A stretch of 56,900 nt of DNA from contig JBBDNJ010000297.1 of assembly GCA_040877705.1 (NCBI GenBank), forward strand, positions 1 through 56,900. The letters are read 5' to 3'. The stretch is from Candidatus Binatia bacterium. Lineage in GTDB: Bacteria > Desulfobacterota > Binatia > UBA9968. Of this stretch, positions 34,326 through 52,712 are shown piece by piece. The first letter of the stretch is position 1, and each line of letters begins with the position of its first letter. The translations under genes were made by a program, and so were the position numbers. The notes below the pieces were generated by a model, which ran no database searches, was not told the DNA's origin, and was given only the letters and a program-made list of their open reading frames with translations.

Positions 34326-34413
34326 TTCGAATCTCCGTGCGTAAATCCCGTCAACTGACAGCGGTTCAATAAATCAGCGCGTGTATCTGATTCCGTATCC
34401 TTTAGAGGAGCGT

Positions 34414-36083: not shown

Positions 36084-37142
36084 GTGAGATCCTTTGAACA
36101 CAACTATCTGTTTGATGCGCCTCTTTCCCACGCTCTTCTTATAACGGTCCGTTCCCTCGGTGAGTTTCGCGGCCGTCAGGTTCTATACTCCGAACAGTCG
36201 CCTGAAATCCTGGAGACATTGAGACGTGTGGCCATGGTTCAGAGCACCGAATCTTCAAACCGCATAGAAGGCATTACCGTCGCAGCGGACCGGCTTGAGG
36301 CTTTGGTCGTGAAGAAAGTAACGCCCAAGGACCGTTCGGAGCAAGAAGTCGCAGGATACCGAGACGTATTGGCGACGATCCATGCCAACTACAATAAACT
36401 GCGCTTGTCCACAGATTTGATTCAGAGCTGGCACAAACAGATGTACCGCTTTACGGGAGAATCTGGAGGTGAATGGAAAAAGAAAGACAACGCGATTTTA
36501 GAGGTTCTTTCTGACGGTCGGCAGGTGGTGCGTTTTCAGCCGGTCTCGGCGCTGGCGACAGCAAAATCGATGGAGCGTCTTGTCACCTTGTTCAGCCGTG
36601 CGATGAACGAGGGTAAGACCGATCCGCTGCTTCTGATTGCTTCATTTGTTTTTGACTTTGAGTGTGTCCACCCATTCATGGATGGGAACGGACGCATTGG
36701 ACGTTTGCTGACTATTTTGTCACTCTACCAAGCCGGTTACGAAGTAGGACAGTATATCAGCCTGGAGCGGATTGTAGAAGAGAGCAAAGAAACCTACTAC
36801 GAAGCTCTTCTCAAGAGTTCCCAGAAGTGGCATGAAGCGCAGCATGACCTCTGCCCCTGGTGGAACTACTTTTTGGGCATGCTGACCGCGGCCTACAAGG
36901 AATTTGAGTTGAGGGTTGGGTCCATAACCTCGGCGCGAGGAGCCAAGAGGGAAATGGTCCAGCGGGCGATTGAGCGGATGGTGGGCCGTTTCACCATTGG
37001 AGACCTCAGGCGAGTCTGTCCTGGAGTTAGCTATCCTACTTTACAACGCGCTCTCGCGGATCTAAAACGGAAACGGAAAGTGAAGTGTTTGGGGCGTGGA
37101 CCAGATTCTCAATGGGAACGCATCCGGGGGGTGATAAGATAA
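36084..37142 (+). CDS. Fic family protein (Fic_N + Fic + C-terminal wHTH architecture)
   Basis: Canonical Fic motif HPFMDGNGRIGR, an N-terminal inhibitory-helix-type motif SSNRIEG (S-x-x-x-E-G), and a C-terminal segment (RFTIGDLRRVCPGVSYPTLQRALADL) that resembles a wHTH. GTG start. Confidence 0.85.
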   Translation: MRSFEHNYLFDAPLSHALLITVRSLGEFRGRQVLYSEQSPEILETLRRVAMVQSTESSNRIEGITVAADRLEALVVKKVTPKDRSEQEVAGYRDVLATIHANYNKLRLSTDLIQSWHKQMYRFTGESGGEWKKKDNAILEVLSDGRQVVRFQPVSALATAKSMERLVTLFSRAMNEGKTDPLLLIASFVFDFECVHPFMDGNGRIGRLLTILSLYQAGYEVGQYISLERIVEESKETYYEALLKSSQKWHEAQHDLCPWWNYFLGMLTAAYKEFELRVGSITSARGAKREMVQRAIERMVGRFTIGDLRRVCPGVSYPTLQRALADLKRKRKVKCLGRGPDSQWERIRGVIR

Positions 37143-37409: not shown

Positions 37410-38042
37410 GTGAGTGAACAGGTACTCATTGCGACGTTAGGTTCGGAGCCTCAGGTTGTCACTCTGGTACTGGACCAGCTGCGGGAGAAGGGGAATCCGA
37501 TAGCGGAAGTGATAGTCGTGCACACCATGGGAGAATCAGTGCAGCATTCATTAATGCGTCTCAATGATGAGTTCAGGCGGGCGGGAAGCCCCCGTTACAG
37601 AGCCGTGACGGTGGAAGACAAAGGTTGGCCGGTAGCCGATATCGGTACGGAGGATGAAGTGGCGGCACTGTTGCGGACGCTCTACCGGACGGTCCTCGCC
37701 GAGAAGCGAGCCGGGAGGCTTGTGCACATGAGCATCGCCGGCGGACGAAAACCAATGGCGGTCTATGGAATGGCCGTCGCCCAGCTTCTCTTCGATGAGG
37801 ATGATCGAGTGTGGCACTTGCTTTCAGAAGGGTGGAAGCCGGGGGATGAGCGGGTGATGCATGCGAAACCTGGCGATGCAATTTCACTCCTGCCCGTGCC
37901 GGTGTTGCGCTGGAGTTCGGTGTCGCCAGTGATGACGGAGCTGGCGGTTCCTAACCGCGACCGGCAAGCGCCGCTTGCTAGGCTGCGGAAGAAAGAGGTC
38001 GAGGTTTCGCTCGACTTTCGCGGCCCAGGTCCAAACGATTGA
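37410..38042 (+). CDS. CRISPR-associated Cas_NE0113-family (CARF-like) protein
   Basis: VLIATLGSEPQVVTLVLDQL at the N-terminus and HMSIAGGRKPMAVYG match my recollection of the NE0113 (TIGR02584-type) family pattern (tlG.sPqvvTe...; h.SiAGGRKtM). No fused effector domain is evident in the 210 aa. GTG start. Confidence 0.65.
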   Translation: MSEQVLIATLGSEPQVVTLVLDQLREKGNPIAEVIVVHTMGESVQHSLMRLNDEFRRAGSPRYRAVTVEDKGWPVADIGTEDEVAALLRTLYRTVLAEKRAGRLVHMSIAGGRKPMAVYGMAVAQLLFDEDDRVWHLLSEGWKPGDERVMHAKPGDAISLLPVPVLRWSSVSPVMTELAVPNRDRQAPLARLRKKEVEVSLDFRGPGPND

Positions 38043-38246: not shown

Positions 38247-38642
38247 ATGAAAGCGATCAGATTGACCCCGGCAGAAAGAGCGGCGATCACAAGAAAGTAG
38301 CGACGGGCGAGCGCAAAGGCTCATGCTACAGCTCGAAACGCCAAGTTGTTTGCGAAATACGCTCTTGGCAAAGCGGGGTGGAAGGTTGCGTCTCTCGATA
38401 GCCCCTAAGGCTTCGAATACAAAGGCGTCGTGGACCTTGTGGCGGTCAAGCGAAACAACCGATCTCCCGATGAGCTTACGATCATGCTGGTTCAGGTTAA
38501 GGGTGGGAGCGCGAGAGTAACGAAGGAGGAGCTTTCGAGACTTCGGAGAGCTGCAAGCCACCCGCGGGTTACATGGAACGTGGCAGCAAAACCCGCTAAA
38601 AGCGTCCGCTTCAAGAAGTCCTTAGATTGGGAGACTGAATAA
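38247..38642 (+). pseudogene. decayed Hjc/PD-(D/E)xK-like small nuclease gene with two in-frame stops
   Basis: A single frame from ATG 38247 to the stop at 38640-38642 reads MKAIRLTPAERAAITRK*RRASAKAHATARNAKLFAKYALGKAGWKVASLDSP*GFEYKGVVDLVAVKR...IMLVQVKGG, with TAG at 38298 and TAA at 38406. The G-W-x-V ... DLVAV ... VQVK layout resembles archaeal-type Holliday-junction-resolvase-like nucleases. Its stop overlaps the cas10d ATG (TAATG). Confidence 0.45.
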
Positions 38643-41296
38643 TGGATCGAAAGGAAATCATGACTAAGGCGGCAGCATGGATGCAGGCGCGTGGCTGGAA
38701 AGAGAAACTTGCCAAGCGTCGAGGTTATGAGCAGAGCCTGTTTGAGCACAGCCTGATTGAGCTTGATGTTCTCCTTGAGCTTCTGCCGATCCTCGCGAGC
38801 CCGCGACACTACGGCCTAAGTGAAGCCGAGGAAGCAGTCCTGACAATCGCCGTGCTCGCCCACGATGTCGGTAAAGAAACTGACGCCTGGCAGGTCTACA
38901 TCGGCGATCCCCAGCCGGACCGCTGGGTGCCTCACATTCTTCCCGAGTTGACCAGAGCAGTGGTACCGGAGCTCTGTGCGACATTAGGGTTTTCGGAGCA
39001 AGGTGAGGCAGTTGAGCGCATCATGGCGCACTGTGCTGAGTTCCACCACAACCGGCCAGGAAGAAGTGATGGGGCCATCTTGGAAGCGATGCTTAGTGGC
39101 GGGTCGGATCGCTTTCTCACACTGGCCTATTTGGTCAAGGCCATTGACCACTTCTGCTCCGCTGCCACGGTTGCCGATGCCGAGGACGCGTTGAAGAATG
39201 ATCCCGCGCTGGGCCGGCATCTCGTCGTCGCGTCTCACGAAGCCATGGTTCGGGGCGTCTCGACGGCATTCCTTCACCACGCCGCTCGAGCCGAATTCCA
39301 GCAACGAGGATGGAAGCCTCTCCTGTATTTCTCCAACGCCACTTTATATGCAGCCGACCCTAGCGATCACCATAATATTCCCACGGCAGAAGAGATTGGC
39401 AACGGCCTCAAGACGGAAATTGACAGGTCCATCAGTCGAGACGTAACCCCACTGATGGTTGGAAGCCCCACAGGGAACATTCTCCCCAAGCCGGATCTCT
39501 TCGCCTTCAGCGAGTCCCGGCAGTACCTCCGCAGTGCCGCAAGCAAAATTAGTCCGCAAAGCTTCGCCAAGAAGAAGCTGCCGGCAAAACGCAAAGTGGT
39601 CGAGGACTACTGGAAACTCCAGGGCCGAACCACCAAACCCACGGATGCACAGGTTGAGGAAGAGTCCGCTCGCATCTCGGTAGCCCAGCCCGAGATGCTT
39701 GTCTTCAAGTTTTTCAAAGCCATGTTGGACCCGGACAAGGTCGAGGTTGTTGGTGAGGATGGCGCCGTTCTAGCCAAGAAGCTCTACGAGGAAACGTTCG
39801 GGTCTGGCAGTTGGGCTGCGCTCCAGTCCACGTCCACCATTATGCCAGCCAAGGACATGGGAAAGACTATCGACTACTTCTGGGCGCTGCCAGGTGCGGC
39901 GGTAGGCCACTCTCAAGTTACAAAGGTCGCAGAGCTTCCAAACGAGATTCGCGTGCAGGTATTGATTGATCTACTCGATGCTATCGCCCAGAAGGTCTAT
40001 TCAGCAATTAGCCGACCATCGCCGAGAGATAAGTTGTCTCAGGACATGGCCACAGCATTCATCAATGATCTCCTGAGGCCAATAGACGGCGGTAACGTTC
40101 AAGCTATTGCTCAACAGCAACTAAGCTACTACACACAGTCAAAGCCCTTTGCTGGAAAAGAGAGCGCGAAGGGAATTTATCTGTGTCCGATCTGTAATGC
40201 TCCTTTCGATCAGAATCATGGAATCAAAGCCTCGGCCGACTTCATCGAAAATCCACAGACCCACACTAATCGTGGGATAGCGCATGGATCCTTCGGTTAC
40301 ATCATGGTCTGCGTTACTTGCTACTACGAGCGGCTCCTCCTCCAGATACTTCTCGGGAGTCGTCCGGCGGAAATGATCACGCTTTTGCCCCGACTCAACC
40401 TGGGGCCGGGGAAAGGCGAGCAGTTGGTCAGCAAAGTCCAGGGTTGGGTAGAGGCAGCCAAAGGGCAGATGCGAGGTGAAACCGGCAACCTGGAGTTCGG
40501 ATTTTCGCTCGGTTTCACCGATCAAGCAGCCCGTCACATAAAGGAGCGTGACCCCTTTTCTCTAAAGCCCGAGGAGCTGCTCTCGCTCTTCAGTTACCGT
40601 TTTACCGCCGACACCCGGCAGAAAAGACGCCGAGAAGCGATGAGACGGCTTAAAGAGGAGTTCGATAACGACTTCGAAGCCCTTAATCTTGCCACTGGTC
40701 AATCCTTCGGGACATGGGACGATGCTGTTGAGGCCCTCATCGCAAATCGACTTAATCAGCAGGAGTTCAGGGCGATTCGTCGGGAGGTCTTTCGCCTCTA
40801 TGAAACGATACATCTGATTTGCGAGACGCCTAACTTGATCTTCATCCCGCTCAGTTACGAGATCGCGTCCGGTAACGACGAATCGGAAACGAGCCGAGGG
40901 CTGCGGCGGCTCCACGTGGCCTTGCTCCTGAGCCTTGTCTTTGACGCCTCTGTGGCCATTCACAAGACGGATGAACCAGTGGACTTCCGAGGCGGACTAG
41001 GGGCAGCCTACGTGCCTCCGATCCCGGCGGTCCGCTCTCTTGTGGGCTACGACTGGCTGTCCATCGGTGAGGCAAAGCGTTGGCTCTCCGCGATCGGCGC
41101 GGCAAGCCTGTTGGTGCGAGATACCGGTCTGCCCGCACGCTCCGCTCTTTATCAAATTCTTACGATGGACCCTCCGGAAAAGCTCGCTCGTCGCATTGAG
41201 GAAAAAGGCGACACTTCTCTGACGCCGCGTCATATTAGTTTAATCGAGCAGTTGCCAGCCTTTCACAGAACCCGGGAAAAGGAGGTGCGCCCGTGA
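38642..41296 (+). CDS. cas10d: Cas10d-like large subunit with N-terminal HD nuclease domain (type I-D-like)
   Basis: 884 aa with HD-domain residues near the N-terminus (LFEHSL; VLAHDVGKE, HD at 38861-38866; AEFHHNRPG). An internal Cys pair cluster (LCPICNAPF ... MVCVTCYYE) resembles the Cas10 Zn finger. No GGDD-type cyclase motif was seen. It heads an operon with Csc2-, Csc1- and Cas3'-like genes. Confidence 0.7.
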   Translation: MDRKEIMTKAAAWMQARGWKEKLAKRRGYEQSLFEHSLIELDVLLELLPILASPRHYGLSEAEEAVLTIAVLAHDVGKETDAWQVYIGDPQPDRWVPHILPELTRAVVPELCATLGFSEQGEAVERIMAHCAEFHHNRPGRSDGAILEAMLSGGSDRFLTLAYLVKAIDHFCSAATVADAEDALKNDPALGRHLVVASHEAMVRGVSTAFLHHAARAEFQQRGWKPLLYFSNATLYAADPSDHHNIPTAEEIGNGLKTEIDRSISRDVTPLMVGSPTGNILPKPDLFAFSESRQYLRSAASKISPQSFAKKKLPAKRKVVEDYWKLQGRTTKPTDAQVEEESARISVAQPEMLVFKFFKAMLDPDKVEVVGEDGAVLAKKLYEETFGSGSWAALQSTSTIMPAKDMGKTIDYFWALPGAAVGHSQVTKVAELPNEIRVQVLIDLLDAIAQKVYSAISRPSPRDKLSQDMATAFINDLLRPIDGGNVQAIAQQQLSYYTQSKPFAGKESAKGIYLCPICNAPFDQNHGIKASADFIENPQTHTNRGIAHGSFGYIMVCVTCYYERLLLQILLGSRPAEMITLLPRLNLGPGKGEQLVSKVQGWVEAAKGQMRGETGNLEFGFSLGFTDQAARHIKERDPFSLKPEELLSLFSYRFTADTRQKRRREAMRRLKEEFDNDFEALNLATGQSFGTWDDAVEALIANRLNQQEFRAIRREVFRLYETIHLICETPNLIFIPLSYEIASGNDESETSRGLRRLHVALLLSLVFDASVAIHKTDEPVDFRGGLGAAYVPPIPAVRSLVGYDWLSIGEAKRWLSAIGAASLLVRDTGLPARSALYQILTMDPPEKLARRIEEKGDTSLTPRHISLIEQLPAFHRTREKEVRP

Positions 41297-41904
41297 GAGT
41301 TCCCATTACCGTCCAGATCAAGCCTTTTGATATCGAGAGCGTCCAATCCAAAATCGATTCAGCGCGAGAGGCGTTGACTCGCTACCTCGATGAAGTGCCT
41401 CGGAAGTCAACTCGCTCGAAGCATGGCCTTATGGGACCGGTTGGAAAGATCCTGAGCGAAGTGAAGAGTGGGCGGCGCGATCCCGCCTCTCTCAAAGGTT
41501 ACGCTGTCCGTGTCCACGAAGCGACAAGCAGGAGCCCGTCTCCGGCAGGCCTTCAAGCACTCGAAGAGGGAATCGACCGGATAGTCAAATTACTCACCGA
41601 AGTTCCCATCACGGCACATGATCGCCTGCTCGACCGGCTAGACTACGGGCTCTACTACGACCTTCGTAAAAAGGAGCTCGAATCAAAAGAGATGCGACGC
41701 CAGGCATGGATCGGATTCCTCCGTAACAAGTACGATACAGAGGCGAAGCTTTCTGAAACCTGGGGGGAGCAAATCGCCACTTTTGACGAACTTTACCTTC
41801 CGCGGAAAGCTGAGGGATCGAAGACCAAGAAAGCTACGGCAAAGCAACACGACATTACCGCGTTCTGGGAGTCGCAGGGTGTCACTACCGATGAGGAGGA
41901 GTAA
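41293..41904 (+). CDS. hypothetical helical protein, candidate stand-alone small subunit (Cas11d-like)
   Basis: 203-aa charged, helix-rich ORF. Its GTG start overlaps the cas10d stop (GTGA) and its stop abuts the cas7d ATG. The role is assigned by position only. Confidence 0.35.
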   Translation: MRVPITVQIKPFDIESVQSKIDSAREALTRYLDEVPRKSTRSKHGLMGPVGKILSEVKSGRRDPASLKGYAVRVHEATSRSPSPAGLQALEEGIDRIVKLLTEVPITAHDRLLDRLDYGLYYDLRKKELESKEMRRQAWIGFLRNKYDTEAKLSETWGEQIATFDELYLPRKAEGSKTKKATAKQHDITAFWESQGVTTDEEE

Positions 41905-42855
41905 ATGACGATAATCGCAGAGAAGTTGAAGGGCTACTTGGTAGACAGGCCACGGCCGCTGATTGGGGCTGAAACGATCCAACTTATTCTTTTACGCGAA
42001 GTCCTCGACTATACCGTGCTGAGGACGGAAGAGACCCGTGAGCTGAACTCCGTCAACACGCCGCTCTCCGAAGCGGATCGGGCTACGACAGCGAAGCGGG
42101 TTGCCTTTCTTGGCTCCAAGCAGAAAGCCGCCGAATCCCGCGAGATGGAATACTTGCTCCGGTCCGCCACGGCGGCTTCTGGCAAGGACATACCATCCGG
42201 AAAGAATGGCGAAGGGTGCTATCTAAAGGACAATCTCTGTCTCCGGTGTCCCCGCTGCGGACTTTACGGCGCGACGGCGCTTGGTCAGGAAGCGAACATC
42301 AAGCACCGGATCGAATACTCAACGGCTTTCTCTCTCCTTCCGTTCGATCAGATATCGGAAGAAATCACTTTCAATGCTGTCAGCGAATTGGACCAGACAA
42401 CCGGTCAGGCATTGGGTAGTCGAAATGTCGTCAAACCCGCAAGCCTTTTCCCGTCCATTGTGACCCTGAAGGGGGTAACGCGAGAAGAGTTGGTTCTTAC
42501 GGTAAAAACCCTGCTGGCTTGCAAAAGCTATGGCGCCGAATCGCGTATCGGCGGCGACTGCCGGAATACATTTTTTGGTGTCATTGCCGGATGGGAGGAG
42601 ATGATAACACCCCTGGAGCTGACGGTGGAACTTTACGACCAGAAGGACGGCTTGGACCCCGCAGCTCTGAAAAACCTTCTGGTGCAAAAATACAAGGCGC
42701 TCGCCGGGAATCCTGATCGCATTTTGGTACTCGACCCTGCCGAGGTGGACGCGCTGTTCCAGGAGTGCGCTCAAACACCTCTCGACCGGGCTTTCCTCGA
42801 CAAGGCATACAACGACATTACCGAGTATCGTAGGGCCCAAGGGGAGAAAGTTTAA
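41905..42855 (+). CDS. csc2: Csc2/Cas7d-like backbone subunit
   Basis: 316 aa with a CLRCPRCGLYG Cys motif, FPSIVTLKG and KSYGAESRIGG segments that fit my recollection of Csc2. The size and the position between the large subunit and the Cas5-like gene also fit. Confidence 0.6.
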   Translation: MTIIAEKLKGYLVDRPRPLIGAETIQLILLREVLDYTVLRTEETRELNSVNTPLSEADRATTAKRVAFLGSKQKAAESREMEYLLRSATAASGKDIPSGKNGEGCYLKDNLCLRCPRCGLYGATALGQEANIKHRIEYSTAFSLLPFDQISEEITFNAVSELDQTTGQALGSRNVVKPASLFPSIVTLKGVTREELVLTVKTLLACKSYGAESRIGGDCRNTFFGVIAGWEEMITPLELTVELYDQKDGLDPAALKNLLVQKYKALAGNPDRILVLDPAEVDALFQECAQTPLDRAFLDKAYNDITEYRRAQGEKV

Positions 42856-42873
42856 TCTGCAGGAGGCGGCTTC

Positions 42874-45174
42874 ATGGAGAAACTCAAAAAGATCTGGAGC
42901 CAATATGGCGGGGAAAAATGCGTGCTACTTGTGGGCGCAGGCGTCTCGTATTCGCAACCTTCCAATTTTCCGACAGGTTCGGCTTTCATGAGCACTGTTT
43001 TGAAAAAATGTGCAGTGGATGACAGTACGAAAATACTATTAGACGACCTTTGTGATAACAAGAGATCTGATGGAAATTGGCTCAGATTTGAAGGCTTACT
43101 GGAGGTTCTCGCACGGTTCGTTGACAAGGAATTAGGCGTCTTGAAAATGTATGCTGGCAACCAGAAAGGAGACAATCAGTTTGATGGGGGAATACCTAAT
43201 GACAATCACGGGTTTTTGGCGAGCCTTATTAGGGCTGGCCATTATGTTGTTACAACAAATTTTGATGTGCTAATCGAAAAGGCGATGAATCCTAGCAATA
43301 AGGGTTTTGTTACCGAGGATCAATGGGAGAAATTTACAGCAGGGGCGAACCCTGGTTCGCTGCTTAAAATACACGGTAGCCTACTACGGTTTGAAAATGG
43401 AGGCTGGGTTTGGAATGACGGTGAACACCCTGCCGCCCCTGTGGTCACACTACGCCGAGTTTCACGAACACGGCAATCCATTGTGAGGCGGAACAAATTC
43501 GGTGAACTCTTGGGTGATTTCCCACTGCTGGTTGTAGGATATTCCGCCAGCGATGACTTTGACGTGTCTCGGTGGCTACTCGAGATCAAATCGAATCAGC
43601 CAGTGCTATGGATTCAGCACACGCAAACTAGTAAGCCGGATCACTGCCAATACCTTTCCGGGGCCGACGTGGCATTGGGAATGGCTGGAGTTTCCCCGGG
43701 GCTGCTAGAAATTGCACAGCACTGGCAGAGGGATAACGGAAGTACTTATGGCAGGAAATTGGACTTACTCCATGTTTTTAAGTGCAGCACCCCAGAAGCA
43801 CTGGCGGCGTTCTCCGCTACCTTAGGTCAGCAAGGCTCCTCCCCAAACTTTTCGAAAGAGAGCCATAAAGAAGAACCCTCGGGAAGTCTTGATAGTTTCC
43901 TTAAGACTTGGGCAGCTAAGCATGTTCCTAATAAGTGGAGCCAGTCTTTAGTCAGTGGGGCTCTCCTTGCACACTGTTTTCACTTTCCAGCAGCGAGGGA
44001 GCTTTTGGAGAAGTCTCTCGAGGAGGCCAAGGACGACTATCAGAAAACCCAAAGTCTCGTGCTGCTTTCCGAAACAGAATCGGAGCTCCCCTTGCCCGAA
44101 GACAAGGCGGTCGCGCTACAGCATGCAGCGCAAGCCTTTGACACAAGCCCCGGGCAAAGAGAGGCTCGTCTGGCTAGAGCAAATGCTCTGCTCTATTGCA
44201 GTCGGCTGCTTAAGAACCTGTCTTTCCTGCAGCGCGAAGAGTTGAAAAAAGAGGCAGAGAGTATATGGAAGGCAATTTGGGACAATTCTAAAGCTTCACC
44301 TTTCGAAAGATCGCGTGCAGCGGCGGAACTTTATCGGATGGATCGACACTTTGGGGGGAGAAATGCGCCGGAGATAGATAAAATAAGACAACAAGACCTG
44401 GCAGTCGAAGCCTTGATCATTCATGAAACCGCACGCCGGGACAAGTGGCAACAGGCGAGATCTGTGACAGATATCAGAACAGCCATTCAGGATATGACAG
44501 CTGCGGTGGATCTCCGTGAACGACTTGGGGAGTTACGCGGGCTCTGCGCCAGCACGAATGTGCTTGGCAATATGTACCAACGACTGTGGGAGTGGATCAC
44601 ATGGGAAGTGGGCTCAAACCCTGGAGAAGCGGAACAGGAAATTAAACGGGCCTTGTACTGGCATGAGCGATCTGTGGAAATCGCCGAGAGATACGGCTTC
44701 AGATGGGATAGAGGTCAGGCTGAAGTTGCACTTAGCGTCCTTTGCCTACGTTGGGAAAATGATTCTGTTAAGGCTTGGTCACGTCTTCTCGAAGCTGAGT
44801 GCGAACGCGAAACCAACGGTTCTGCGGACAATATAAAACTTGACCTTCAGCGGGCTATTTTGGTCACGTTTCGGAGGGGGACTGTAACAGAGGGAGTAAG
44901 AGTCGCCCGTGACCTATTTGCACACATCGTAAACGACTACGGGCAAAAAGAAGACACACGGCAGGACCGGGGGATCGGAGCAGCACAAGTTAACATGAGC
45001 ATTTGCGATTGGGTCCTAGGTAACTCATTTGTGTTGCCGTGGCCTGACGTGTTTAAGGGAAGCACCTATTGGAGAAAGCGAATTATGAAAACCCAAGCAA
45101 AACTTGATGAGCATCGGGAGAAAGGCATGCCTGAGCCCGACCTCCATCGGATATTCTTGGATCCACTCCCTTGA
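42874..45174 (+). CDS. SIR2-like (SIR2_2-type, NADase-class) domain protein with long C-terminal helical/TPR-like repeat region
   Basis: The N-terminal roughly 235 aa carry the SIR2_2 pattern in order: VLLVGAGVSYS (42934-42948), VVTTNFDVLIEKA (Asn codon 43258-43260), LLKIHGSL (His codon 43372-43374) and LLVVGYSASDDFD. The remaining roughly 500 aa are helix-repeat-like. No Walker A motif is present. A GGAGG site lies 8 nt upstream of the ATG. Confidence 0.75.
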   Translation: MEKLKKIWSQYGGEKCVLLVGAGVSYSQPSNFPTGSAFMSTVLKKCAVDDSTKILLDDLCDNKRSDGNWLRFEGLLEVLARFVDKELGVLKMYAGNQKGDNQFDGGIPNDNHGFLASLIRAGHYVVTTNFDVLIEKAMNPSNKGFVTEDQWEKFTAGANPGSLLKIHGSLLRFENGGWVWNDGEHPAAPVVTLRRVSRTRQSIVRRNKFGELLGDFPLLVVGYSASDDFDVSRWLLEIKSNQPVLWIQHTQTSKPDHCQYLSGADVALGMAGVSPGLLEIAQHWQRDNGSTYGRKLDLLHVFKCSTPEALAAFSATLGQQGSSPNFSKESHKEEPSGSLDSFLKTWAAKHVPNKWSQSLVSGALLAHCFHFPAARELLEKSLEEAKDDYQKTQSLVLLSETESELPLPEDKAVALQHAAQAFDTSPGQREARLARANALLYCSRLLKNLSFLQREELKKEAESIWKAIWDNSKASPFERSRAAAELYRMDRHFGGRNAPEIDKIRQQDLAVEALIIHETARRDKWQQARSVTDIRTAIQDMTAAVDLRERLGELRGLCASTNVLGNMYQRLWEWITWEVGSNPGEAEQEIKRALYWHERSVEIAERYGFRWDRGQAEVALSVLCLRWENDSVKAWSRLLEAECERETNGSADNIKLDLQRAILVTFRRGTVTEGVRVARDLFAHIVNDYGQKEDTRQDRGIGAAQVNMSICDWVLGNSFVLPWPDVFKGSTYWRKRIMKTQAKLDEHREKGMPEPDLHRIFLDPLP

Positions 45175-45209
45175 GCATGAGCCTTGTTTGGTCCCAGGGA
45201 GATTAAGCA

Positions 45210-45968
45210 ATGGATAGCCATTTTAGCCCTAGCCAAAGCGATCCTCTTGAACTCAACGCACAGGGAATTCGGCTCTACGCCGGACGTCTTTATAACCACG
45301 ATTACCTCTGGTTTTCGTCGTTCGAGATCTCAAAGACCGCCGCCATCCTGCCACTGATTCACAACTACGCCCTGAGCTACGCACTTTGCGGTTACTCGTA
45401 CGGAATCTATACAGGGAGTACGCCGCGTTACGCCGAGGACCTCAATGCCATGCAAGCCTACGCCACTCCGGCTCGGCCGCAGGCGCTATCGGCTCGAACT
45501 CGGCTCACCCAAAACGCAGTCAACTCACGCACGCTGAGAACTGACGACGCTCCCCGCGGGAGCAACAGCCCGGCGCTGGGATGGCGCCTCGTTCTCGATC
45601 CAGTCTGGCACGACGGTGCGGGCGCAGGCGACCTCCTTGGGTTCAGCTTTTATCTCTTTGCCCGCGCCTCATTTCATCCACCTTCCGTGGTCAGACTTGG
45701 CAAGAAAGGCTGCCCGGTCCGGCTCGACTGGCAGGAAATTACGGGAGCGGTGGGGCTCTTTACCGATAACGCGGTTCGCCCCTCCCATGCCGTCAACCCA
45801 CTTGATGTTCAGGGTGAAATCATTTCCTACGAACCGTTGCCCATCCCCCCGCACCTGATTTTTCGGGTGGCCGAGATCCAGAAGGACTGGTTTGTGTTTG
45901 CTGGTGAGCACGTTGTCCACATACCACGGCGATTCGCCTTGCCCAAAGGGGCCGCTGCTCAAATCTGA
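45210..45968 (+). CDS. csc1: Csc1/Cas5d-like subunit
   Basis: 252 aa. The N-terminal HDYLWFSSFEISKTAAILPLIHNYALSYAL fits the Csc1 pattern as I recall it (..dylfFasrE......p.ihNYALtYAL). Confidence 0.6.
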   Translation: MDSHFSPSQSDPLELNAQGIRLYAGRLYNHDYLWFSSFEISKTAAILPLIHNYALSYALCGYSYGIYTGSTPRYAEDLNAMQAYATPARPQALSARTRLTQNAVNSRTLRTDDAPRGSNSPALGWRLVLDPVWHDGAGAGDLLGFSFYLFARASFHPPSVVRLGKKGCPVRLDWQEITGAVGLFTDNAVRPSHAVNPLDVQGEIISYEPLPIPPHLIFRVAEIQKDWFVFAGEHVVHIPRRFALPKGAAAQI

Positions 45969-45972
45969 ATCT

Positions 45973-46875
45973 ATGGCTATCCAGCCCTCTAAGTCCTTAC
46001 AAGAAGCGCTTCACCAAGCGATGCTTGAAATTGCCAATCTTCGTAACAGACTGCCAGGAGCCAAAGCTGGCCAAGTTTTGGATGCTTTCGACAGGATCGA
46101 AAACATTTGGGCCAAACAAGATGTGGAGCAGTTTCCCTTCAACACGTTGTCCAAGGAAATAGACACCATCCGAATCGAGGTACGGGAAGCTTTCAGTGGA
46201 GAACTCGATCTAGCAGTAGATCGGAGATCTGCTGTTTTCGACTTGGTGGTTGCTCTTGATCACCGATTCCGGATTTACAGTGAGCTGGTAGCCTTCGATC
46301 CCATTTATCACAGTTTGGAAAGACGCCTTCAACGAATTGACGATGTCTTGCCGTCACGAAATTATGCGATAGGAGACCTACTTTCTGAATTACGCCCTTC
46401 CTTTGATCCTAATTTGAAAAGAAGACTTGAGAGCGCCGTAGAACATTTCGGACGTGAGGAATACGAATCGGTTCTTACCGAATGCGGCAAAGCCGAAGGG
46501 ATGTTTTTCTCTCACTTCAAAAGACTGATGGCATCCTTCGGGATTAGCGAACTTCCGGATCAAACTGGTTCCGCCATCCGCGCTATTCGCAGGATACTCG
46601 AATCAAAACAGGACACGCGAGGGCTTTCTCTTGCCAAGAGTAGCCGCCTTGAACATTTCGTACTCTACATGTCTGAAACGCTCCATTATTTTCGTAATCT
46701 TGGGGCTCATGATCGCGCCGAAGAAGTCGGAAACGAAAAACTTCCCGAATGGCAGATTCAACGTAGGGAGCTTTTTACCCAAAAACCGGAATATGCTCGG
46801 CTTGCTTTAGTCTTAGCAGTTCAGATCGCGATTGAATTACAGGCTCTTTTGGAACGACAGGAATTGAAGACATGA
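45973..46875 (+). CDS. HEPN-motif protein (unknown N-terminal helical domain + C-terminal HEPN-like domain)
   Basis: 300 aa from ATG 45973, which lies 4 nt after the cas5d stop. The C-terminal third has LESAVEHFGREEYESVLTECGKAEGMF followed by HYFRNLGAHD. RNLGAH (46693-46710) fits the HEPN R-[N]-x3-H catalytic motif and is followed by a final helix. The stop overlaps the cas3' ATG (ATGA). Confidence 0.55.
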   Translation: MAIQPSKSLQEALHQAMLEIANLRNRLPGAKAGQVLDAFDRIENIWAKQDVEQFPFNTLSKEIDTIRIEVREAFSGELDLAVDRRSAVFDLVVALDHRFRIYSELVAFDPIYHSLERRLQRIDDVLPSRNYAIGDLLSELRPSFDPNLKRRLESAVEHFGREEYESVLTECGKAEGMFFSHFKRLMASFGISELPDQTGSAIRAIRRILESKQDTRGLSLAKSSRLEHFVLYMSETLHYFRNLGAHDRAEEVGNEKLPEWQIQRRELFTQKPEYARLALVLAVQIAIELQALLERQELKT

Positions 46876-48881
46876 TGTTCACGGTGCAAGCTTGTGGACT
46901 TCCGGTGCTAGAACATCCGGCCTCCCGGGGGCCCCCCTTGTACCCTCACCAGGTTGCGATGTGGAAGGCATGGGAGGAGCACCCGGCGATGCTCCTCACA
47001 GCAAAGACGGGGACCGGTAAGACGCGGGCGGCGATGTTGCCGGTACTGAAGCGGCGCGAGGGGGCGGTGGCGGTGTATCCCACAAATGAGCTTTTGAGGG
47101 ATCAGGTGCGAGCTGTAGCGAAGTTTGCGACGGAAGAAGGAATCGAGCCGCTCGTGTGGTTGCCGGAAATGTGGCATGCCTCTGATCGAGCCGAGCTATA
47201 CAGCCGCGCAGCTCACGTCCTGATTCCTGTAGACGGCAACATTCTGGATCAATGGCAGGATGTGATGCACTGCAAAAGTCGGGGTGAAACGTTGCGACGG
47301 CTTTTCGATCCGGACAAGCCCAAGATCATCTTTACCAATCCGGATATTTTGTTTCTCATCCTGGGGCTTCGGTATCACGCCGAGCCCTTTGAAGCACTGA
47401 GGCGCTACGAGACGTTGATTCTGGATGAGTTCCACCTTTATCAGGGCGTAGAGCTGGCCCATGCCCTTGCTATGGTTGCACTTGCCCGCGGGTTCGGGAT
47501 CTTCCGGCGGTTAGTTTTGCTCTCCGCGACACCGCATCAGCAAGTCCGTTTATTGTTGGACCGGGCGATCAGTCCGACGATAATTGACTCGCATATCGAA
47601 ACGCATTCTGCATCTGGATGCTCGCGCACGGCGGTCCATTCCGTCGAGGTCGAGCCGATCCAACTTACGGGTGGGGACCCGATTGAAATTCTCCTTTCTC
47701 GAATTGTCGATCTTAGGCATGCACTCGAAAGATTGCGTAGCGACATCCCTGATGAGGACTACCTTCCGGCGGTGGTCATCGTTAATTCGGTTCTGAACGC
47801 CATCCGCCTGGAAGATCGGCTGGTGGAGTCGGGTTTTCCCCGAAACACTCTGGCGATCATCAGAGGGCTCTCGCACCGGGCTATAAGGGACACCAGAGGC
47901 AAACTCTTAGCGCTCGGAACCTCAGCCGTCGAGGTGGGGGTAGACTTTCGCTGCGATTATCTTTTCTTCGAGGCTTTGGAAGCCGCTTCGTTCCTTCAGC
48001 GGTTCGGCCGCGTGGGTCGTCATGGGCCAGGGAAGGCTATTGTTCTGGTGCCACCCAACGCGTTTCAGGGGATGAGCAGCATTCCGGGCGCCATCGATCG
48101 AGCCACGTTCGAGGAGCGCGTCTATGCCTGGTACCCGTCGGCAAGTGCATACCCTTGGTTCGTCACGACCGAAAGTGGCATGACAACCGTCAGAGCCCAG
48201 GGCGAGAACCTGATTTCAACAGTTCAGCAAGACCGAAACGTGACGCCAGAAGTAATTTCCAAGCTGCGCGAGAAGATCGATGCAATCCTGGCCGATCTTG
48301 CAGAGCGCCTCGGATGCCCGGATAGGAACCTACAGGCCAAAGGCGCCTTTGAGCGTTGCGCGACTGGGAAGAAAAGCGCCCACTGGCTTGATGTGTACCG
48401 CCGGTTGAACCGTTTCCGGACGTCGCTACCAAGTGTCAGGATTCATGACTTCATGGAGCAGAGCCGGCGCAAGGAATGGGATCTGGGCGAATATGACATT
48501 GACGTGGCCACTCTCCTGAAGCGCGCCGTGGGACTCACTTGGAACGATAAGTTGGAAACACTGACAATCAAGGGGCTCGGAAAATACCGCCGGGTCCATG
48601 CCAGCGAGATATTCAGTGACGACGACTGCGGTATGATTCACGAGACACAGAACTGGCCACAGTTGCGGCTCTACCAGGACGGTGAGTCAACACCAGTTTC
48701 GGATCTCATGGCACGTGAAAATCATATCTTCACGGTCGTCCCCAAGGTGGAGGTAGAATCCCAGTTGGATTGGCGATTGCCGGTGTTTGAAGCGGGTAGG
48801 TATCTGGTTGCCTTTGATGGAGCGGCGTTGTTGCTTTTGGAGCTCTGGAAAAAAACAAAAGAGGCAACAAGGGCAACGTGA
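46872..48881 (+). CDS. cas3: Cas3' superfamily-2 helicase without HD domain
   Basis: Has Walker A (AKTGTGKT), a DEFH box (LILDEFHLY), SAT (LLSATP) and motif VI (LQRFGRVGRHG). No HD motifs are present, consistent with the HD being on the large subunit as in type I-D. Confidence 0.8.
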   Translation: MMFTVQACGLPVLEHPASRGPPLYPHQVAMWKAWEEHPAMLLTAKTGTGKTRAAMLPVLKRREGAVAVYPTNELLRDQVRAVAKFATEEGIEPLVWLPEMWHASDRAELYSRAAHVLIPVDGNILDQWQDVMHCKSRGETLRRLFDPDKPKIIFTNPDILFLILGLRYHAEPFEALRRYETLILDEFHLYQGVELAHALAMVALARGFGIFRRLVLLSATPHQQVRLLLDRAISPTIIDSHIETHSASGCSRTAVHSVEVEPIQLTGGDPIEILLSRIVDLRHALERLRSDIPDEDYLPAVVIVNSVLNAIRLEDRLVESGFPRNTLAIIRGLSHRAIRDTRGKLLALGTSAVEVGVDFRCDYLFFEALEAASFLQRFGRVGRHGPGKAIVLVPPNAFQGMSSIPGAIDRATFEERVYAWYPSASAYPWFVTTESGMTTVRAQGENLISTVQQDRNVTPEVISKLREKIDAILADLAERLGCPDRNLQAKGAFERCATGKKSAHWLDVYRRLNRFRTSLPSVRIHDFMEQSRRKEWDLGEYDIDVATLLKRAVGLTWNDKLETLTIKGLGKYRRVHASEIFSDDDCGMIHETQNWPQLRLYQDGESTPVSDLMARENHIFTVVPKVEVESQLDWRLPVFEAGRYLVAFDGAALLLLELWKKTKEATRAT

Positions 48882-49082: not shown

Positions 49083-49376
49083 ATGAAAGTCTATAGGGGA
49101 ATCGTGAAAGGCAATACGATCTTGCTGGAAGAGAAGCCGGATTTGCCGGACGAATGTCCGGCGCTCGTGGAGATCAAGCCAATCGACGAGGCGCGGGACC
49201 GGGAGATCGCGCGGAGGCACATCGCATTGCTCAAGAAGGCGCCGCGCGTGGGTAAGTCGCTCTACAAGAAACGCGAGGAGCTTTATGAGGGGAGAAAAAG
49301 GGGACAGGCTGCTTTTGTGCACAAGCGCAAAGATGAAAAAGGATTGTGGTGCAGCGGTGCGGGCGGGATAGATTAG
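49083..49376 (+). CDS. DUF104/AF2212-like small antitoxin-type protein, paralog 1
   Basis: MKVYRGIVKGNTILLEEKPDLPDECPALVEI fits the pattern of small antitoxins of the 'MK.i.g.y.nG.i.l.e...LPeg..v.v.i' type. It is a paralog of the 49898-50116 gene. Confidence 0.5.
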   Translation: MKVYRGIVKGNTILLEEKPDLPDECPALVEIKPIDEARDREIARRHIALLKKAPRVGKSLYKKREELYEGRKRGQAAFVHKRKDEKGLWCSGAGGID

Positions 49377-49396
49377 GCGCGGGGAACCGGGAGCAA

Positions 49397-49801
49397 ATGA
49401 TTTCTAAAACGAATGCTATTACGTATGCTTTTCGCAAACCCAGATTTCCCTTGATCTGCGACCTTGGCGGTTTTCTCGTCGCCGCCGAATCGCCCGCCGC
49501 TTTGCAGCGCCGTCTTGCCGGTAGGGACCTTCCTACGGAGAGAAAAGTCCGGTTAGTCGACGCACGCGGGGAAGGCTGGATGCTCCTTCCAAACGAAATG
49601 ATCGTGGCTCCCGGCTTTACGACGAGAAGGTGGCGCAAGATCGAAATCATTCGCTTATTCAACGGCAGCCGCAACGCGAAAGAAACCGGCCAGCGCTATC
49701 CAGAACATGTGATAGCAAACAGACGCCTCGACGCCATCGTTTGCGAAATCGCAGCGCTTTTGTCTCGAGAATGGACCGCCGCTTCAAGACATCGTTGCTG
49801 A
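49397..49801 (+). CDS. hypothetical protein
   Basis: 134-aa ORF from ATG 49397, downstream of antitoxin-like paralog 1. No family was recognised. Confidence 0.3.
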   Translation: MISKTNAITYAFRKPRFPLICDLGGFLVAAESPAALQRRLAGRDLPTERKVRLVDARGEGWMLLPNEMIVAPGFTTRRWRKIEIIRLFNGSRNAKETGQRYPEHVIANRRLDAIVCEIAALLSREWTAASRHRC

Positions 49802-49897
49802 AGTGCATCGTATGAGACGCGAGACACGAAAACGATATACCTAAATCCCAGAAAACAGTTGGGAGATAGAGTAACCCGGCCAAAACCAGGAGGCAGA

Positions 49898-50116
49898 ATG
49901 AAACCATACCGAGGGGTTGTAAGAGGCAATACGGTGATCTTGGAGGAGACGCCGGAGGGGGCCGAGGGCGCGGAGGCGATCGTGTTGCTGAAAGTTTCTG
50001 AGGAGGAGGATCAGATAATTGTCCAGCGCCAGAAGGCGATGCTGCAAAAGGGCTTTCCGATGGGCAAATTACACTACAAAAAACGGGAAGAGTTGCACCG
50101 TGGAAATGAAAAATGA
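49898..50116 (+). CDS. DUF104/AF2212-like small antitoxin-type protein, paralog 2
   Basis: MKPYRGVVRGNTVILEETPEGAEGAEAIVLL...KLHYKKREELH parallels paralog 1 (..KSLYKKREELY). A GGAGG site lies upstream, and the stop overlaps the next ATG (ATGA). Confidence 0.55.
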   Translation: MKPYRGVVRGNTVILEETPEGAEGAEAIVLLKVSEEEDQIIVQRQKAMLQKGFPMGKLHYKKREELHRGNEK

Positions 50117-50454
50117 CTAGACGCGTAAAGTTGAAATCTAAGGACGCGGCGGCGCTGGAAGAATTTGTGCGAAGTTTGCGGTCCGCACTAGGGAAAAACT
50201 TGCTTGAGGCGAAACTCTTCGGTTCCAAGGCCACAGGAAGAGATCAACCGGATTCAGACATCGATGTGCTCGTCGTCGTGAATCAGAACGGCGTGGAGAC
50301 CGAGGATAGGGTTCTGGACATCGCGTTCGATGTCAACCTCAAGCATGACGTCTATATCTCGCCGCGGGTCATTGACCGCTCGATTCTCTCAGATCCGGTA
50401 TGGAGCATCACGCCTTTTCTTCGGGCCGTTGCAAAAGAAGGGATTCCGCTTTGA
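50113..50454 (+). CDS. minimal nucleotidyltransferase (MNT-type) protein
   Basis: LFGSKATGRDQPDSDIDVLVVV matches the GSxxxG...DxD polymerase-beta-type nucleotidyltransferase motif of MNT components of MNT/HEPN modules. Confidence 0.8.
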   Translation: MTRRVKLKSKDAAALEEFVRSLRSALGKNLLEAKLFGSKATGRDQPDSDIDVLVVVNQNGVETEDRVLDIAFDVNLKHDVYISPRVIDRSILSDPVWSITPFLRAVAKEGIPL

Positions 50455-50499
50455 AGGCGGAACGAAAAAAAATGAGCGATGGGAAGATGAGCTGAAAAG

Positions 50500-51087
50500 A
50501 TGGCTGACCGGGACGATAAATCACGCCCTAATTTGATTGCACCGCACGGCGGCTATCGCGAGCTGAAGTCTTATCAGAACGCGGAGATAGTCTATGACGC
50601 AACCCTTGCGTTCTGCGATAGGTTTGTCAGCCGTCGTTCGCGTACGCATGACCAGATGGTACAGGCTGCGCGCAGCGGTAAGCAAAATATCGCCGAAGGC
50701 AGCATGGCATCAGGCACGTCAAAGAAAACCGAACTCAAGCTGGTGGGCGTGGCGCGGGCCAGCCTCGAAGAGCTGCTGCTGGACTACGAGGATTATTTGC
50801 GGCAGCACGGACTGGAGATCTGGGAAAAAACCCACTCAACCGCTCAGGTTGTCAGAAAGCTGGCTTACGCCAGCAATAGGTCCTATGGGTCGTATAAGCC
50901 CTATATTGAAGAAAACTCCCCGGCCCTTGCCGCGAATACGCTGATTTGCCTGGTTCACCAAACGAACTATCTGCTCGACCAGCAACTACGCCAGCTTGAA
51001 CAGCAGTTTTTGGAAGAGGGCGGCTTTACGGAGAAACTCTATCGAGTCCGAAGCCAGGCAAGGAAGAGTCGAGGCTATGGCAAGTGA
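50500..51087 (+). CDS. four-helix-bundle protein (23S rRNA intervening-sequence / Avd-like family) with suffix domain
   Basis: YRELKSYQNAEIVYDATLAFCDRF...MVQAARSGKQNIAEGS is the characteristic pattern of this family. Confidence 0.7.
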   Translation: MADRDDKSRPNLIAPHGGYRELKSYQNAEIVYDATLAFCDRFVSRRSRTHDQMVQAARSGKQNIAEGSMASGTSKKTELKLVGVARASLEELLLDYEDYLRQHGLEIWEKTHSTAQVVRKLAYASNRSYGSYKPYIEENSPALAANTLICLVHQTNYLLDQQLRQLEQQFLEEGGFTEKLYRVRSQARKSRGYGK

Positions 51088-51310
51088 TTCTGCGCTTTTG
51101 GTCAAAACAGGGAAGTTTACCGCAGAGCACCAGAGAGTTTTACAGGACGCTTTTACGGATCGGAGCGCGGGAGACTATGCGGGCGTATTCCCTGCCCGCG
51201 AAGAGGTGGAGCGCCGCTTTGTGGAAGCCGTCTTTATCCGCTTTGATGAGGACCGAAGTGTCAACGACGATCTTCTCGGCCATAACGACTATCTCGGTAG
51301 TAGCGAATGA
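51077..51310 (+). pseudogene. possible N-terminally truncated HEPN-domain gene (partner of the MNT gene)
   Basis: ALLVKTGKFTAEHQRVLQDAF.DRSAGDY resembles the C-terminal half of small HEPN proteins (..sH.gv...f ... R..gDY). The N-terminal helices are missing. It overlaps the 4HB gene end and the RHH gene end. Confidence 0.3.
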
Positions 51311-51524
51311 TGTCCGTCGAGTCCCACTGGCCGACCCAATGCTGTTCGAGTTTTCTCAAAGGGGCGAGGGCCGTTTCCCACTTGCTCGTTCCCTTTCGTG
51401 TCTTGGCCATTTGCGCACGCAAAGCGTCGCGAATGACATCGCCTCGCGAGCGGCGCTGGCTCTTTGCGGCACTGTCTGCTTTCTTCAAAACTTCGTCGGG
51501 TATGGAGACCATTACTTTAGCCAT
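51261..51524 (-). CDS. ribbon-helix-helix (CopG/MetJ-type) antitoxin-like protein
   Basis: MAKVMVSIPDEVLKKADSAAKSQRRSRGDVIRDALRAQM is a typical RHH N-terminus. ATG 51524 lies behind a GGAGGAG site. It is divergent from cas6. Confidence 0.65.
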   Translation of the reverse strand: MAKVMVSIPDEVLKKADSAAKSQRRSRGDVIRDALRAQMAKTRKGTSKWETALAPLRKLEQHWVGQWDSTDIIRYYRDSRYGREDRR

Positions 51525-51649
51525 GGAGCACTCCTCCGGCACAATATAGCCTTTGCTTTTGAGGCCGGCAAACCGTGCCTTTCTTTTGATGTTCGCGATA
51601 AACGCTTTGTTGGCACGGATTCCCGACTAGCCCTGGAAGGTAGCTGAGA

Positions 51650-52621: not shown

Positions 52622-52712
52622 GGAGTCAACCGAAGAATTACACAATTTGTTCGGATTACTCGGCTGGAACAGTTGGGCAGTTGAACGTTGAACGTTTGAA
52701 CACGAGGTTGTT

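Follow-up and report, generated by a model that had tools for sequence, protein, structure and literature searches.

A conserved helical protein and a predicted recent SIR2 capture in the interference operon of a type I-D-variant CRISPR-Cas locus from Candidatus Binatia

The stretch of DNA analysed here, referred to as the window, comprises a 56.9-kb contig from the metagenome-assembled genome of a Candidatus Binatia bacterium. It carries the interference operon of a complete type I-D-variant CRISPR-Cas locus that is probably active. Two additional genes are located among the cas genes of this operon, one encoding a 766-aa SIR2-family protein and the other a 300-aa all-alpha protein, hereafter P300. 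The original prediction regarded them as two equivalent embedded non-Cas effectors, an equivalence that did not survive the comparison with related loci: P300 is fixed in 12 loci, and the SIR2 gene alone has been inserted, with no counterpart in the other loci of the variant. The explanation that we favour, and consider fairly probable, is that P300 is a component of the effector module and that the SIR2 gene represents a recent, independent capture.

The operon consists of seven open reading frames, whose coordinates and order match the earlier description:

38642 to 41296, plus strand: cas10d, large subunit with an N-terminal HD (Cas3'') domain, divergent variant (PADLOC PDLC01192, E=0, full length)
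41293 to 41904, plus strand: cas11d, a separate 203-aa gene with a GTG start (PADLOC PDLC01194, 9.2e-77, full length)
41905 to 42855, plus strand: csc2 / cas7d (Pfam Csc2, 1.4e-42, 146 bits; NCBIfam TIGR03157, 113.7 bits against a cut-off of 38)
42874 to 45174, plus strand: SIR2-family protein of 766 aa, with an N-terminal SIR2_2 domain and a C-terminal alpha-helical (TPR-like) region (Pfam SIR2_2)
45210 to 45968, plus strand: csc1 / cas5d, with an insertion-derived N-terminus, MDSHFSPSQ- (NCBIfam TIGR03159, 62.9 bits against 41.4)
45973 to 46875, plus strand: P300, a 300-aa all-alpha protein (alignments, conserved position in 12 loci, AlphaFold2 model of the C-terminal domain)
46872 to 48881, plus strand: cas3' helicase (NCBIfam TIGR03158, 149.3 bits against 69.1; Pfam DEAD and Cas3-like_C_2)

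These profile searches established the gene identities and confirmed the proposed I-D-type interference operon, with an HD-bearing Cas10d, Cas11d, Csc2, Csc1 and an HD-less Cas3'. The NCBIfam Cas3'' HD model matches residues 64-145 of Cas10d. For Cas3', no HD match was found in NCBIfam or Pfam, and the Pfam search returned helicase domains only. Cas10d is described as a divergent variant because its score against the NCBIfam equivalog TIGR03174 (21.8 bits) is below the cut-off of 60. Furthermore, neither Cas10d nor Cas11d has sequence relatives among the PDB sequences, which sets this lineage well apart from the Synechocystis and Sulfolobus systems whose structures have been studied. The features by which type I-D is recognised, namely the HD-bearing Cas10d, the Csc2 and Csc1 backbone and the separate HD-less Cas3', were all observed. 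Production of Cas11d by internal translation within cas10d was not, as Cas11d is encoded by its own gene here and, with a length of ~205 aa, in all related loci; this is a feature of the variant and excludes nothing.

The gene order and all six tight junctions of the original prediction were reproduced exactly by coordinates. The cas10d and cas11d genes share a GTGA overlap (41293-41296), and the cas11d stop adjoins the csc2 ATG at 41904/41905. An 18-nt gap containing GGAGG precedes the SIR2 gene (42874), a 35-nt gap precedes cas5d (45210), a 4-nt gap (ATCT) precedes the P300 ATG (45973), and P300 and cas3' overlap by ATGA (46872-46875). The mechanically called open reading frame of P300 begins at a TTG (45892); the start was set at the ATG at 45973 because the N-termini of the homologues (MAIEPP...) agree on it. 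In the promoter and terminator scan inside the operon, the counts equalled those of shuffled sequence, and nothing above chance separates the SIR2 gene or P300 from the cas genes. The claim that a real SIR2-family gene and an Rx4H-motif gene lie inside the transcription unit was borne out, by the SIR2_2 match, by R241 and H246 of P300 and by the lack of a separating promoter or terminator.

The distribution of P300 carries the first part of our explanation. A word-based cluster search returned 26 homologues at 52-99% identity, and an exhaustive hidden Markov model (HMM) search of 1.84 billion cluster representatives identified 38 P300 clusters, nearly all encoding proteins of ~290-300 aa. Seven I-D-variant loci were recovered, consisting of the window and L001/L002, L003/L004, L008, L010, L012 and L019, and the order cas10d-cas11d-csc2-csc1-P300-cas3' is observed in 7/7 of them. 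Together with five type III-like modules, described below, the same position is established for P300 in 12 loci. The gene is always located directly after cas5, and its start abuts or overlaps the cas5 stop or is only a few nucleotides away from it. In the I-D variant, cas3' is the next gene, and the P300 stop overlaps or abuts its start in most loci, including the window. In every locus retrieved, P300 stands in a cas context, a tblastn search against plasmids gave no match, and no partner antitoxin gene accompanies it. As judged from this comparative evidence, P300 belongs to the effector module as a fixed component typical of the lineage and is not an insert. The suggested check for a conserved cas association elsewhere thus came out in favour of P300 (12 loci) and against the SIR2 protein, whose homologues lie outside cas operons. 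Likewise, the idea of captured defence cassettes fits the SIR2 gene, as a unique insertion, and fails for P300 with its conserved position.

Base composition had been used to propose a late acquisition of both genes. Their GC content is indeed lower, at 50.0% for the SIR2 gene (0.50 at third codon positions, GC3) and 47.0% for P300 (GC3 0.44), against 54-58% (GC3 0.60-0.64) in the remaining cas genes of the interference operon; the 37% figure given earlier was too low. The same dip was found in the P300 orthologues of L003, L010 and L012, which makes it a family trait and no sign of recent acquisition. Low GC content as proof of a late arrival of P300, and with it the late acquisition of both genes, was accordingly dropped.

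A further pattern emerged from the comparison of the window with L010, its near-identical relative. DNA identity is 47-70% over cas11d and 65-75% over P300, against 89-97% elsewhere, and the drops (window positions 41216-41921 and 45837-47026) are sharp, with boundaries at the gene edges. This suggests that cas11d and P300, exactly the two small helical genes, have either been replaced as cassettes or diverged abnormally fast. If P300 constitutes a new Cas family, as tentatively proposed below, cassette replacement would mark the two as co-adapted, fast-evolving surface subunits, possibly under anti-CRISPR pressure.

The second context of P300 is a conserved four-gene type III-like module, which is closed by distant homologues with ~20-30% identity. 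It was identified at the following positions:

L016, 6206 to 10906: type III-like module
L017, 6266 to 10858: type III-like module
L018, 4038 to 8611: type III-like module
L020, 55 to 4600: type III-like module
L014: type III-like module, in part

The module encodes a ~650-aa HD-Cas10-like protein, a Csm3-like Cas7, a Csx10-like Cas5 of the III-D type and the P300-like protein. The ~650-aa protein possesses an N-terminal HD motif and a match to the Cas10 N-terminus, with no GGDD. In L016 and L017, the module is located between cas1 and cas2-cas4 of type I loci; in L018, it lies between the I-D module and cas3'; and in L020, it stands alone beside ispD/ispF/gltX. None of these P300-bearing modules includes a separate cas11 gene. 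P300 is the only component common to both module types at the BLAST level (28% identity, 7e-22).

Sequence alignment of P300 revealed the motif R241-N-L-G-A-H246 (R-N-x3-H). In the 23 aligned sequences, some with as little as 19% identity, R241, H246, P127 and W260 never vary, and N242 is retained in at least 90%. The conserved Rx4-6H motif by which HEPN proteins are recognised is thus present. The AlphaFold models are all-alpha with two domains, and the full-length model has a predicted local distance difference test score (pLDDT) of 76.5. The AlphaFold2 model of the C-terminal domain (residues 130-300) reached a pLDDT of 83 and a predicted template modelling score (pTM) of 0.78. Its best Foldseek match in the PDB is 1ufb (TT1696, a minimal HEPN), with an E-value of 0.068, which is not significant, a probability of 1.0 and a target-normalised TM-score of 0.58. 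The HEPN entries 2hsb, 1wol, 3o10, 1o3u, 4nqf and 1wty were also observed within the top 35 matches, none of them at E <= 0.001. The search of the C-terminal model against BFVD returned nothing. For the 23 P300 members, a Pfam search at E <= 5 gave no recurrent family (one PaREP1 match at 0.07), and a permissive PADLOC search gave no match. An hhalign comparison of P300 with the IVP-like protein encoded further downstream in the same locus also returned nothing. We therefore use the label "HEPN-like", since the motif is present, the fold similarity is weak and similarity at the profile level is absent; the modelled C-terminal fold resembles HEPN weakly. The earlier designation of the protein as HEPN holds for the motif, with R241 and H246 invariant; it found no profile match and a weak fold similarity.

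In the mechanism that we propose, P300 would be made together with Cas5 and would work with, or as part of, the CRISPR RNA (crRNA)-guided complex and with Cas3'. Most likely it would serve as a HEPN-like RNase or RNA-binding arm, active only upon dimerisation or when licensed by the complex. A more far-reaching proposal, which we advance tentatively and regard as possible rather than probable, is that P300 constitutes a new Cas family: a HEPN-type nuclease subunit, or tight partner, of crRNA-guided complexes, common to a divergent I-D lineage and a reduced, cyclase-less type III-like module. If true, a Cas3-dependent, DNA-targeting Cascade would gain a built-in RNase arm, and the protein would connect I-D and type III effectors at the molecular level.

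The second part of the explanation concerns the SIR2 gene. In L001, L003, L008, L010, L012 (by tblastn of the Cas proteins) and L019, cas7d is followed directly by cas5d with no SIR2 gene between them, so that the gene is missing from this junction in 6/6 of the other I-D-variant loci. The closest comparison is offered by L010, whose proteins are 94.5% (Cas7d), 90% (Cas5d) and 91% (Cas3') identical to those of the window and whose flanking DNA is 89-97% identical (blastn). The inserted segment was delimited as follows:

42856 to 45236, no strand assigned: inserted segment of 2,381 nt with a ribosome-binding site, the SIR2 gene, the 35-nt spacer and a new cas5d start with 8 codons (blastn against L010; junction alignment against five related loci)

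The boundaries of this segment are established by the blastn alignment, in which homology stops at 42855, the cas7d stop, and restarts at 45237 (L010 positions 2572 and 2584); 11 nt of L010 stand where the window has 2,381 nt. The insert gives cas5d a new ATG and eight codons, fused in frame. The nearest Cas5d relatives keep the native start MSDPVDL, and one native-start Cas5d (94% identical) probably shares a contig with a P300 homologue of 99% identity. No terminal inverted repeats or target duplications beyond matches of chance size were found at the flanks of the insert.

The SIR2 open reading frame is intact and retains the catalytic Asn and His. The Pfam family SIR2_2 (PF13289) matches residues 125-244 with 40.6 bits against a gathering score of 24.5. 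In an alignment with 12 homologues (13 sequences), the Rossmann motif GxGxS (G21, G23, S25), T128-N129-x-D131 and K165-x-H167-G168 are invariant; N129 and H167 we take to be the catalytic pair of defence NADases, following what is established for ThsA and DSR2. Among the PADLOC models, PDC-S65 matches partially (4.2e-12, residues 17-139) and the SIR2 models of short-Argonaute systems match weakly; none of the DSR1, DSR2, ThsA and SIR2-HerA models matches at E < 0.01. No match was found among the PDB sequences, and the NCBI name is "SIR2 family protein". At least the C-terminal ~450 residues are helical. No TPR match was obtained in Pfam for this protein at E < 0.01; many such matches occur in remote homologues only (~20% identity; P0006, P0008, P0009 and P0012), and JGI lists one closer homologue as a TPR protein. 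The proposed "SIR2-TPR" architecture was thus upheld in its SIR2 half by the score above the gathering threshold and found no Pfam match in its TPR half; for the C-terminus, no label more specific than "helical repeat, TPR-like" is warranted.

Close homologues of the SIR2 protein are rare, with four at 31-41% identity among 5.8 billion clusters. None of the three with retrievable context (P0002, P0003, P0004) is linked to cas genes; they adjoin insertion sequence (IS) elements, toxin-antitoxin genes or other defence genes. The homologue in L005 adjoins a GAAD/GASH conflict system and transposases (IS110 and rve), the one in L006 adjoins toxin genes and dprA, and the one in L007 is located on a short contig without cas genes. 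On these comparisons, the SIR2 gene is best described as a recent, locus-specific capture of a defence gene encoding a stand-alone predicted NADase with a helical sensor, and this capture gives no evidence for a conserved coupling between Cascade and an NADase. In the proposed sequence of events, a 2.38-kb segment with its own ribosome-binding site would have landed exactly at the cas7d-cas5d junction, in exchange for 11 nt of its ancestral form, and provided cas5d with its new start. The SIR2 gene would now be co-transcribed with Cascade, its expression tied to the cas operon, and its product would act as an independent abortive-infection NAD+ depleter, not triggered by Cascade.

A number of observations weigh against this two-part explanation. 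Every related locus was retrieved via P300 itself, and the statement that P300 is always present in the variant rests on this sampling. The same kind of search returned 506 clusters for Cas5d against 26 for P300; either only some members of the clade possess P300, or its divergence puts it beyond the reach of a word-based search. The divergent P300 orthologues of L008 and L019 were missed by that search. Loci were also sought independently of P300, with a Cas5d alignment against viral contigs and with Cas10d against plasmids, and no match was found in either. Regarding the motif, two distant P300 members display R-x2-H spacing in the alignment. Regarding the fold, the full-length model had no Foldseek match in the PDB, and the Foldseek E-values of the C-terminal domain are non-significant (>= 0.07), with generic bundles such as the vinculin tail interleaved among the HEPN matches. 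At the profile level, P300 matches no Pfam, NCBIfam or PADLOC family at default settings, its HMM has no match among the PDB sequences, and hhalign against one HEPN protein of PF05168 gives a probability of 0.5%. For the SIR2 gene, a single locus is all that speaks to an association with Cascade, in either direction, and the tight embedding, the intact open reading frame and the repaired cas5d start would also be expected if the two were functionally coupled.

The main rival for P300 is a non-catalytic, structural role, as a second small-subunit-like helical protein or as a recruitment or loading factor for Cas3', in which the conserved Arg and His would make nucleic-acid or protein contacts and would not cleave RNA. 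We consider this rather unlikely, although a good deal is consistent with it: P300 is all-alpha with two domains, as small subunits are; its gene invariably closes the large subunit-(Cas11)-Cas7-Cas5 module and, in the I-D variant, stands before cas3', overlapping it here; a separate cas11 is missing from its type III-like modules; it appears to be replaced as a cassette along with cas11d between the window and L010; and its HEPN fold similarity is statistically weak. However, the strict invariance of the Arg and His down to 19% identity, with a polar residue after the Arg, is the behaviour of a catalytic dyad. Moreover, hhalign against the Cas11d of the locus itself finds nothing, and no PADLOC Cas11, Csm2, Cmr5 or Cse2 profile matches any member of the P300 family. 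It is far less probable that both extra genes are independent hitch-hiking cassettes without a functional connection to CRISPR-Cas, in which case P300 would be a HEPN toxin. Such loci do harbour toxin-antitoxin and defence genes (MNT and IVP-like here; PIN/RHH, the latter ribbon-helix-helix, and MNT/HEPN in L001), and the GC content of P300 is lower than that of its neighbours. Nevertheless, that low GC content is a family trait, P300 abuts cas5 across two effector-module types despite ~20-30% identity to the P300 of the window, and it occurs without an antitoxin partner, without a non-cas context in the retrieved loci and without plasmid matches.

With respect to the SIR2 gene, the original prediction had suggested that the locus is an integrated derivative of type I-D in which Cascade, on recognising its target, would switch on the SIR2 NADase as well as the HEPN-like protein, resulting in crRNA-guided abortive infection by NAD+ depletion and RNA cleavage. 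The arrangement lends itself to such a reading, given the seven genes in one operon with gaps of 0-35 nt and RBS-like (ribosome-binding-site-like) sequences, the lack of internal terminators or promoters above chance, the intact SIR2 catalytic residues and the functional new start that cas5d obtained after the insertion. We nevertheless regard it as improbable. The coupling of Cascade to NAD+ depletion found no comparative support, as the SIR2 gene is absent from the six other variant loci, one of them near-identical. Its homologues, only four close ones among the clusters searched, are not cas-linked in the three cases with context, and its architecture, a SIR2 domain with a helical repeat domain, is that of a self-contained sensor-effector that in principle needs no partner. 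Taken together, these three points indicate that the coupling is neither conserved nor required for this Cascade. A mis-assembly of the metagenome, with the SIR2 segment as part of a chimeric contig, would be in keeping with a metagenome-derived contig and with an insert whose GC3 is unlike its surroundings; we find it scarcely credible. Both flanks continue the same operon in the right order and orientation, the left junction falls exactly after the cas7d stop, and the right junction supplies an in-frame cas5d start and a ribosome-binding site, so that a chimera would require two precise mis-joins.

The remaining genes of the locus are distributed on both sides of the interference operon. Upstream, the following were identified:

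34381 to 35394, plus strand: helix-turn-helix (HTH)-WYL-WCX regulator (Pfam WYL 2.4e-20, WCX 2.2e-14, HTH_IclR)
36084 to 37142: Fic/DOC protein, upstream of cas10d
37410 to 38042, plus strand: CARF-domain protein of the Cas_NE0113 family (Pfam PF09623 5.9e-38; PADLOC CARF3 8.8e-71)

The CARF protein spans 179 of the 279 positions of its best profile (CARF3), and the ~600 nt that follow it, up to cas10d, contain no supported gene. Downstream of cas3', the following features were observed:

50113 to 50454, plus strand: MNT-type nucleotidyltransferase (Pfam NTP_transf_2 6.9e-8)
50500 to 51087, plus strand: 23S_rRNA_IVP-like helical protein (Pfam 23S_rRNA_IVP 1.3e-6, below the cut-off)
51650 to 52621, plus strand: cas6 (PADLOC Cas6 2.2e-90; Pfam CRISPR_Cas6)
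52713 to 53903, plus strand: cas1 (Pfam Cas_Cas1 1.3e-65)
54066 to 54344, plus strand: cas2 (Pfam CRISPR_Cas2 3.6e-17)
54341 to 54916, plus strand: cas4 (Pfam Cas_Cas4 1.5e-20; PADLOC Cas4 3.7e-41)
55025 to 56878, plus strand: CRISPR array, truncated at the contig end, with 26 copies of a single 37-nt repeat (GTTTCAAAGATCGTCCCGATGAAGAGGGAACTGAAAG), all identical, separated by 25 spacers (34-38 nt)

The MNT and IVP-like genes (50113 to 51087) form a toxin-antitoxin-like pair between cas3' and cas6, assigned to PADLOC PDC-S09. In related loci, PIN/RHH and MNT/HEPN pairs are found at the same place between cas3' and cas6, and L001 carries both. The region 49083-51647 of the window contains small open reading frames, one of which (97 aa, 49083-49376) is present twice in L012. 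On the adaptation side (51650-54916), the order is cas6-cas1-cas2-cas4, with cas4 last. Cas1 displays an N-terminal extension of ~60 residues beyond the Cas1 profiles, and the Cas1 proteins of related loci measure 390-464 aa. The array begins ~108 nt after cas4. When the 25 spacers were compared with the remainder of the window, they matched it no better than shuffled spacers did. The best repeat-like sequence outside the array has 14 mismatches in 37 positions, equal to shuffled controls, and neither 16-nt end of the repeat, with up to 3 mismatches, was found outside the array.

Type I-D is regarded as a hybrid of types I and III, and its known accessory repertoire is small. The canonical systems are those of Synechocystis PCC 6803 and Sulfolobus islandicus (reviewed in PMC10212523). 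As in these systems, Csc2, Csc1 and the HD-less Cas3' score above the NCBIfam I-D cut-offs, the HD nuclease is located on the large subunit, and the locus includes Cas6, Cas1, Cas2, Cas4 and 37-nt repeats. In contrast to them, Cas11d has its own gene here, the canonical one arising by internal translation within cas10d; Cas10d has diverged strongly, scoring under the TIGR03174 cut-off and matching no PDB sequence; an extra conserved 300-aa gene stands between cas5d and cas3'; and a SIR2 gene is inserted. The gene order also differs, with cas10d first, cas3' last and cas4 after cas2. An I-D variant with a P300-like gene is not mentioned in PMC10212523, PMC12669027 (the 2025 classification) or PMC10910872 (the terascale survey), a comparison that lies apart from the 2020 classification and supplementary data. 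P300 is thus an apparently undescribed Cas-linked family. The earlier remark that no described type I system with this layout was known holds, within these three sources, for the P300-bearing I-D variant and not for a SIR2 gene within a type I operon, which is known from type I-C (bioRxiv 10.1101/2024.12.27.630466).

P300 resembles HEPN RNases, such as the minimal HEPN of MNT-HEPN pairs, Csm6/Csx1 and Cas13, in its R-N-x3-H motif with a polar residue after the Arg, its helical-bundle C-terminus and its CRISPR context. It differs from them in lacking a CARF or other sensor domain, in its extra N-terminal helical domain, in the absence of profile-level HEPN similarity and in fold E-values that are not significant. 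Moreover, unlike the ancillary HEPN genes of type III systems, it is encoded inside a type I effector module. A parallel may also be drawn with III-G and III-H, both without adaptation genes, in which Csx26 of III-G has been proposed to replace Cas11 and III-H has a diverged Cas11 (PMC12669027). Compared by position alone, the distant P300-like genes close cyclase-less HD-Cas10/Cas7/Cas5 modules without cas11, which is the position of Csx26. Unlike in III-G and III-H, P300 coexists with a bona fide Cas11d in the I-D variant, and the P300-bearing modules adjoin the adaptation genes and arrays of type I loci. Should P300 be a nuclease, an RNA-directed activity would be added to a type I system; should it be structural, it would represent a new kind of subunit. 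With 38 clusters and a uniform length, the family is small enough to be a tractable target.

The SIR2 protein, in turn, is similar to stand-alone SIR2 defence proteins (DSR1/DSR2 and the PADLOC candidate PDC-S65), which combine an N-terminal SIR2 domain bearing the Asn and His with a large alpha-helical repeat region. With the DSR1/DSR2-type proteins it also shares the single-gene architecture and homologues in defence or mobile contexts; it differs from DSR1/DSR2 in matching PDC-S65 in part and no DSR model. A precedent for its location is provided by the "CRISPR-supervised immune systems" (CRISIS), in which Nezha (Sir2-HerA), Gabija, a sole Sir2 and others lie inside type I-C cas operons (bioRxiv 10.1101/2024.12.27.630466). 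Each has its own promoter and is followed by a solitary repeat unit, whose crRNA-like RNA makes Cascade repress that promoter (bioRxiv 10.1101/2024.12.27.630466). Given these type I-C cases, defence genes within type I cas operons, SIR2 NADases included, are not unprecedented. The arrangement in the window is comparable in that a non-Cas defence gene, a SIR2 NADase in two CRISIS cases, lies inside a type I operon directly upstream of cas5, and in the notion, common to both, that a second, abortive layer is tied to the expression of Cascade. It is distinct in that it concerns a single instance in subtype I-D, not I-C, that no solitary repeat unit is present and the 35-nt gap is too small for one, and that there is no room for a promoter in the 18-nt gap, which holds a ribosome-binding site only; the promoter scan is not enriched, and spacer-window matches are at chance. 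CRISIS-type regulation of the SIR2 gene was rejected on these grounds, there being no solitary repeat unit and no self-matching spacer. The insertion offers a clean natural case, with a datable "empty site", of a predicted abortive-infection NADase entering a cas operon. It extends the hosting of defence genes from type I-C to type I-D without a crRNA-like regulatory device, and for that reason it bears on how layered defences first arise.

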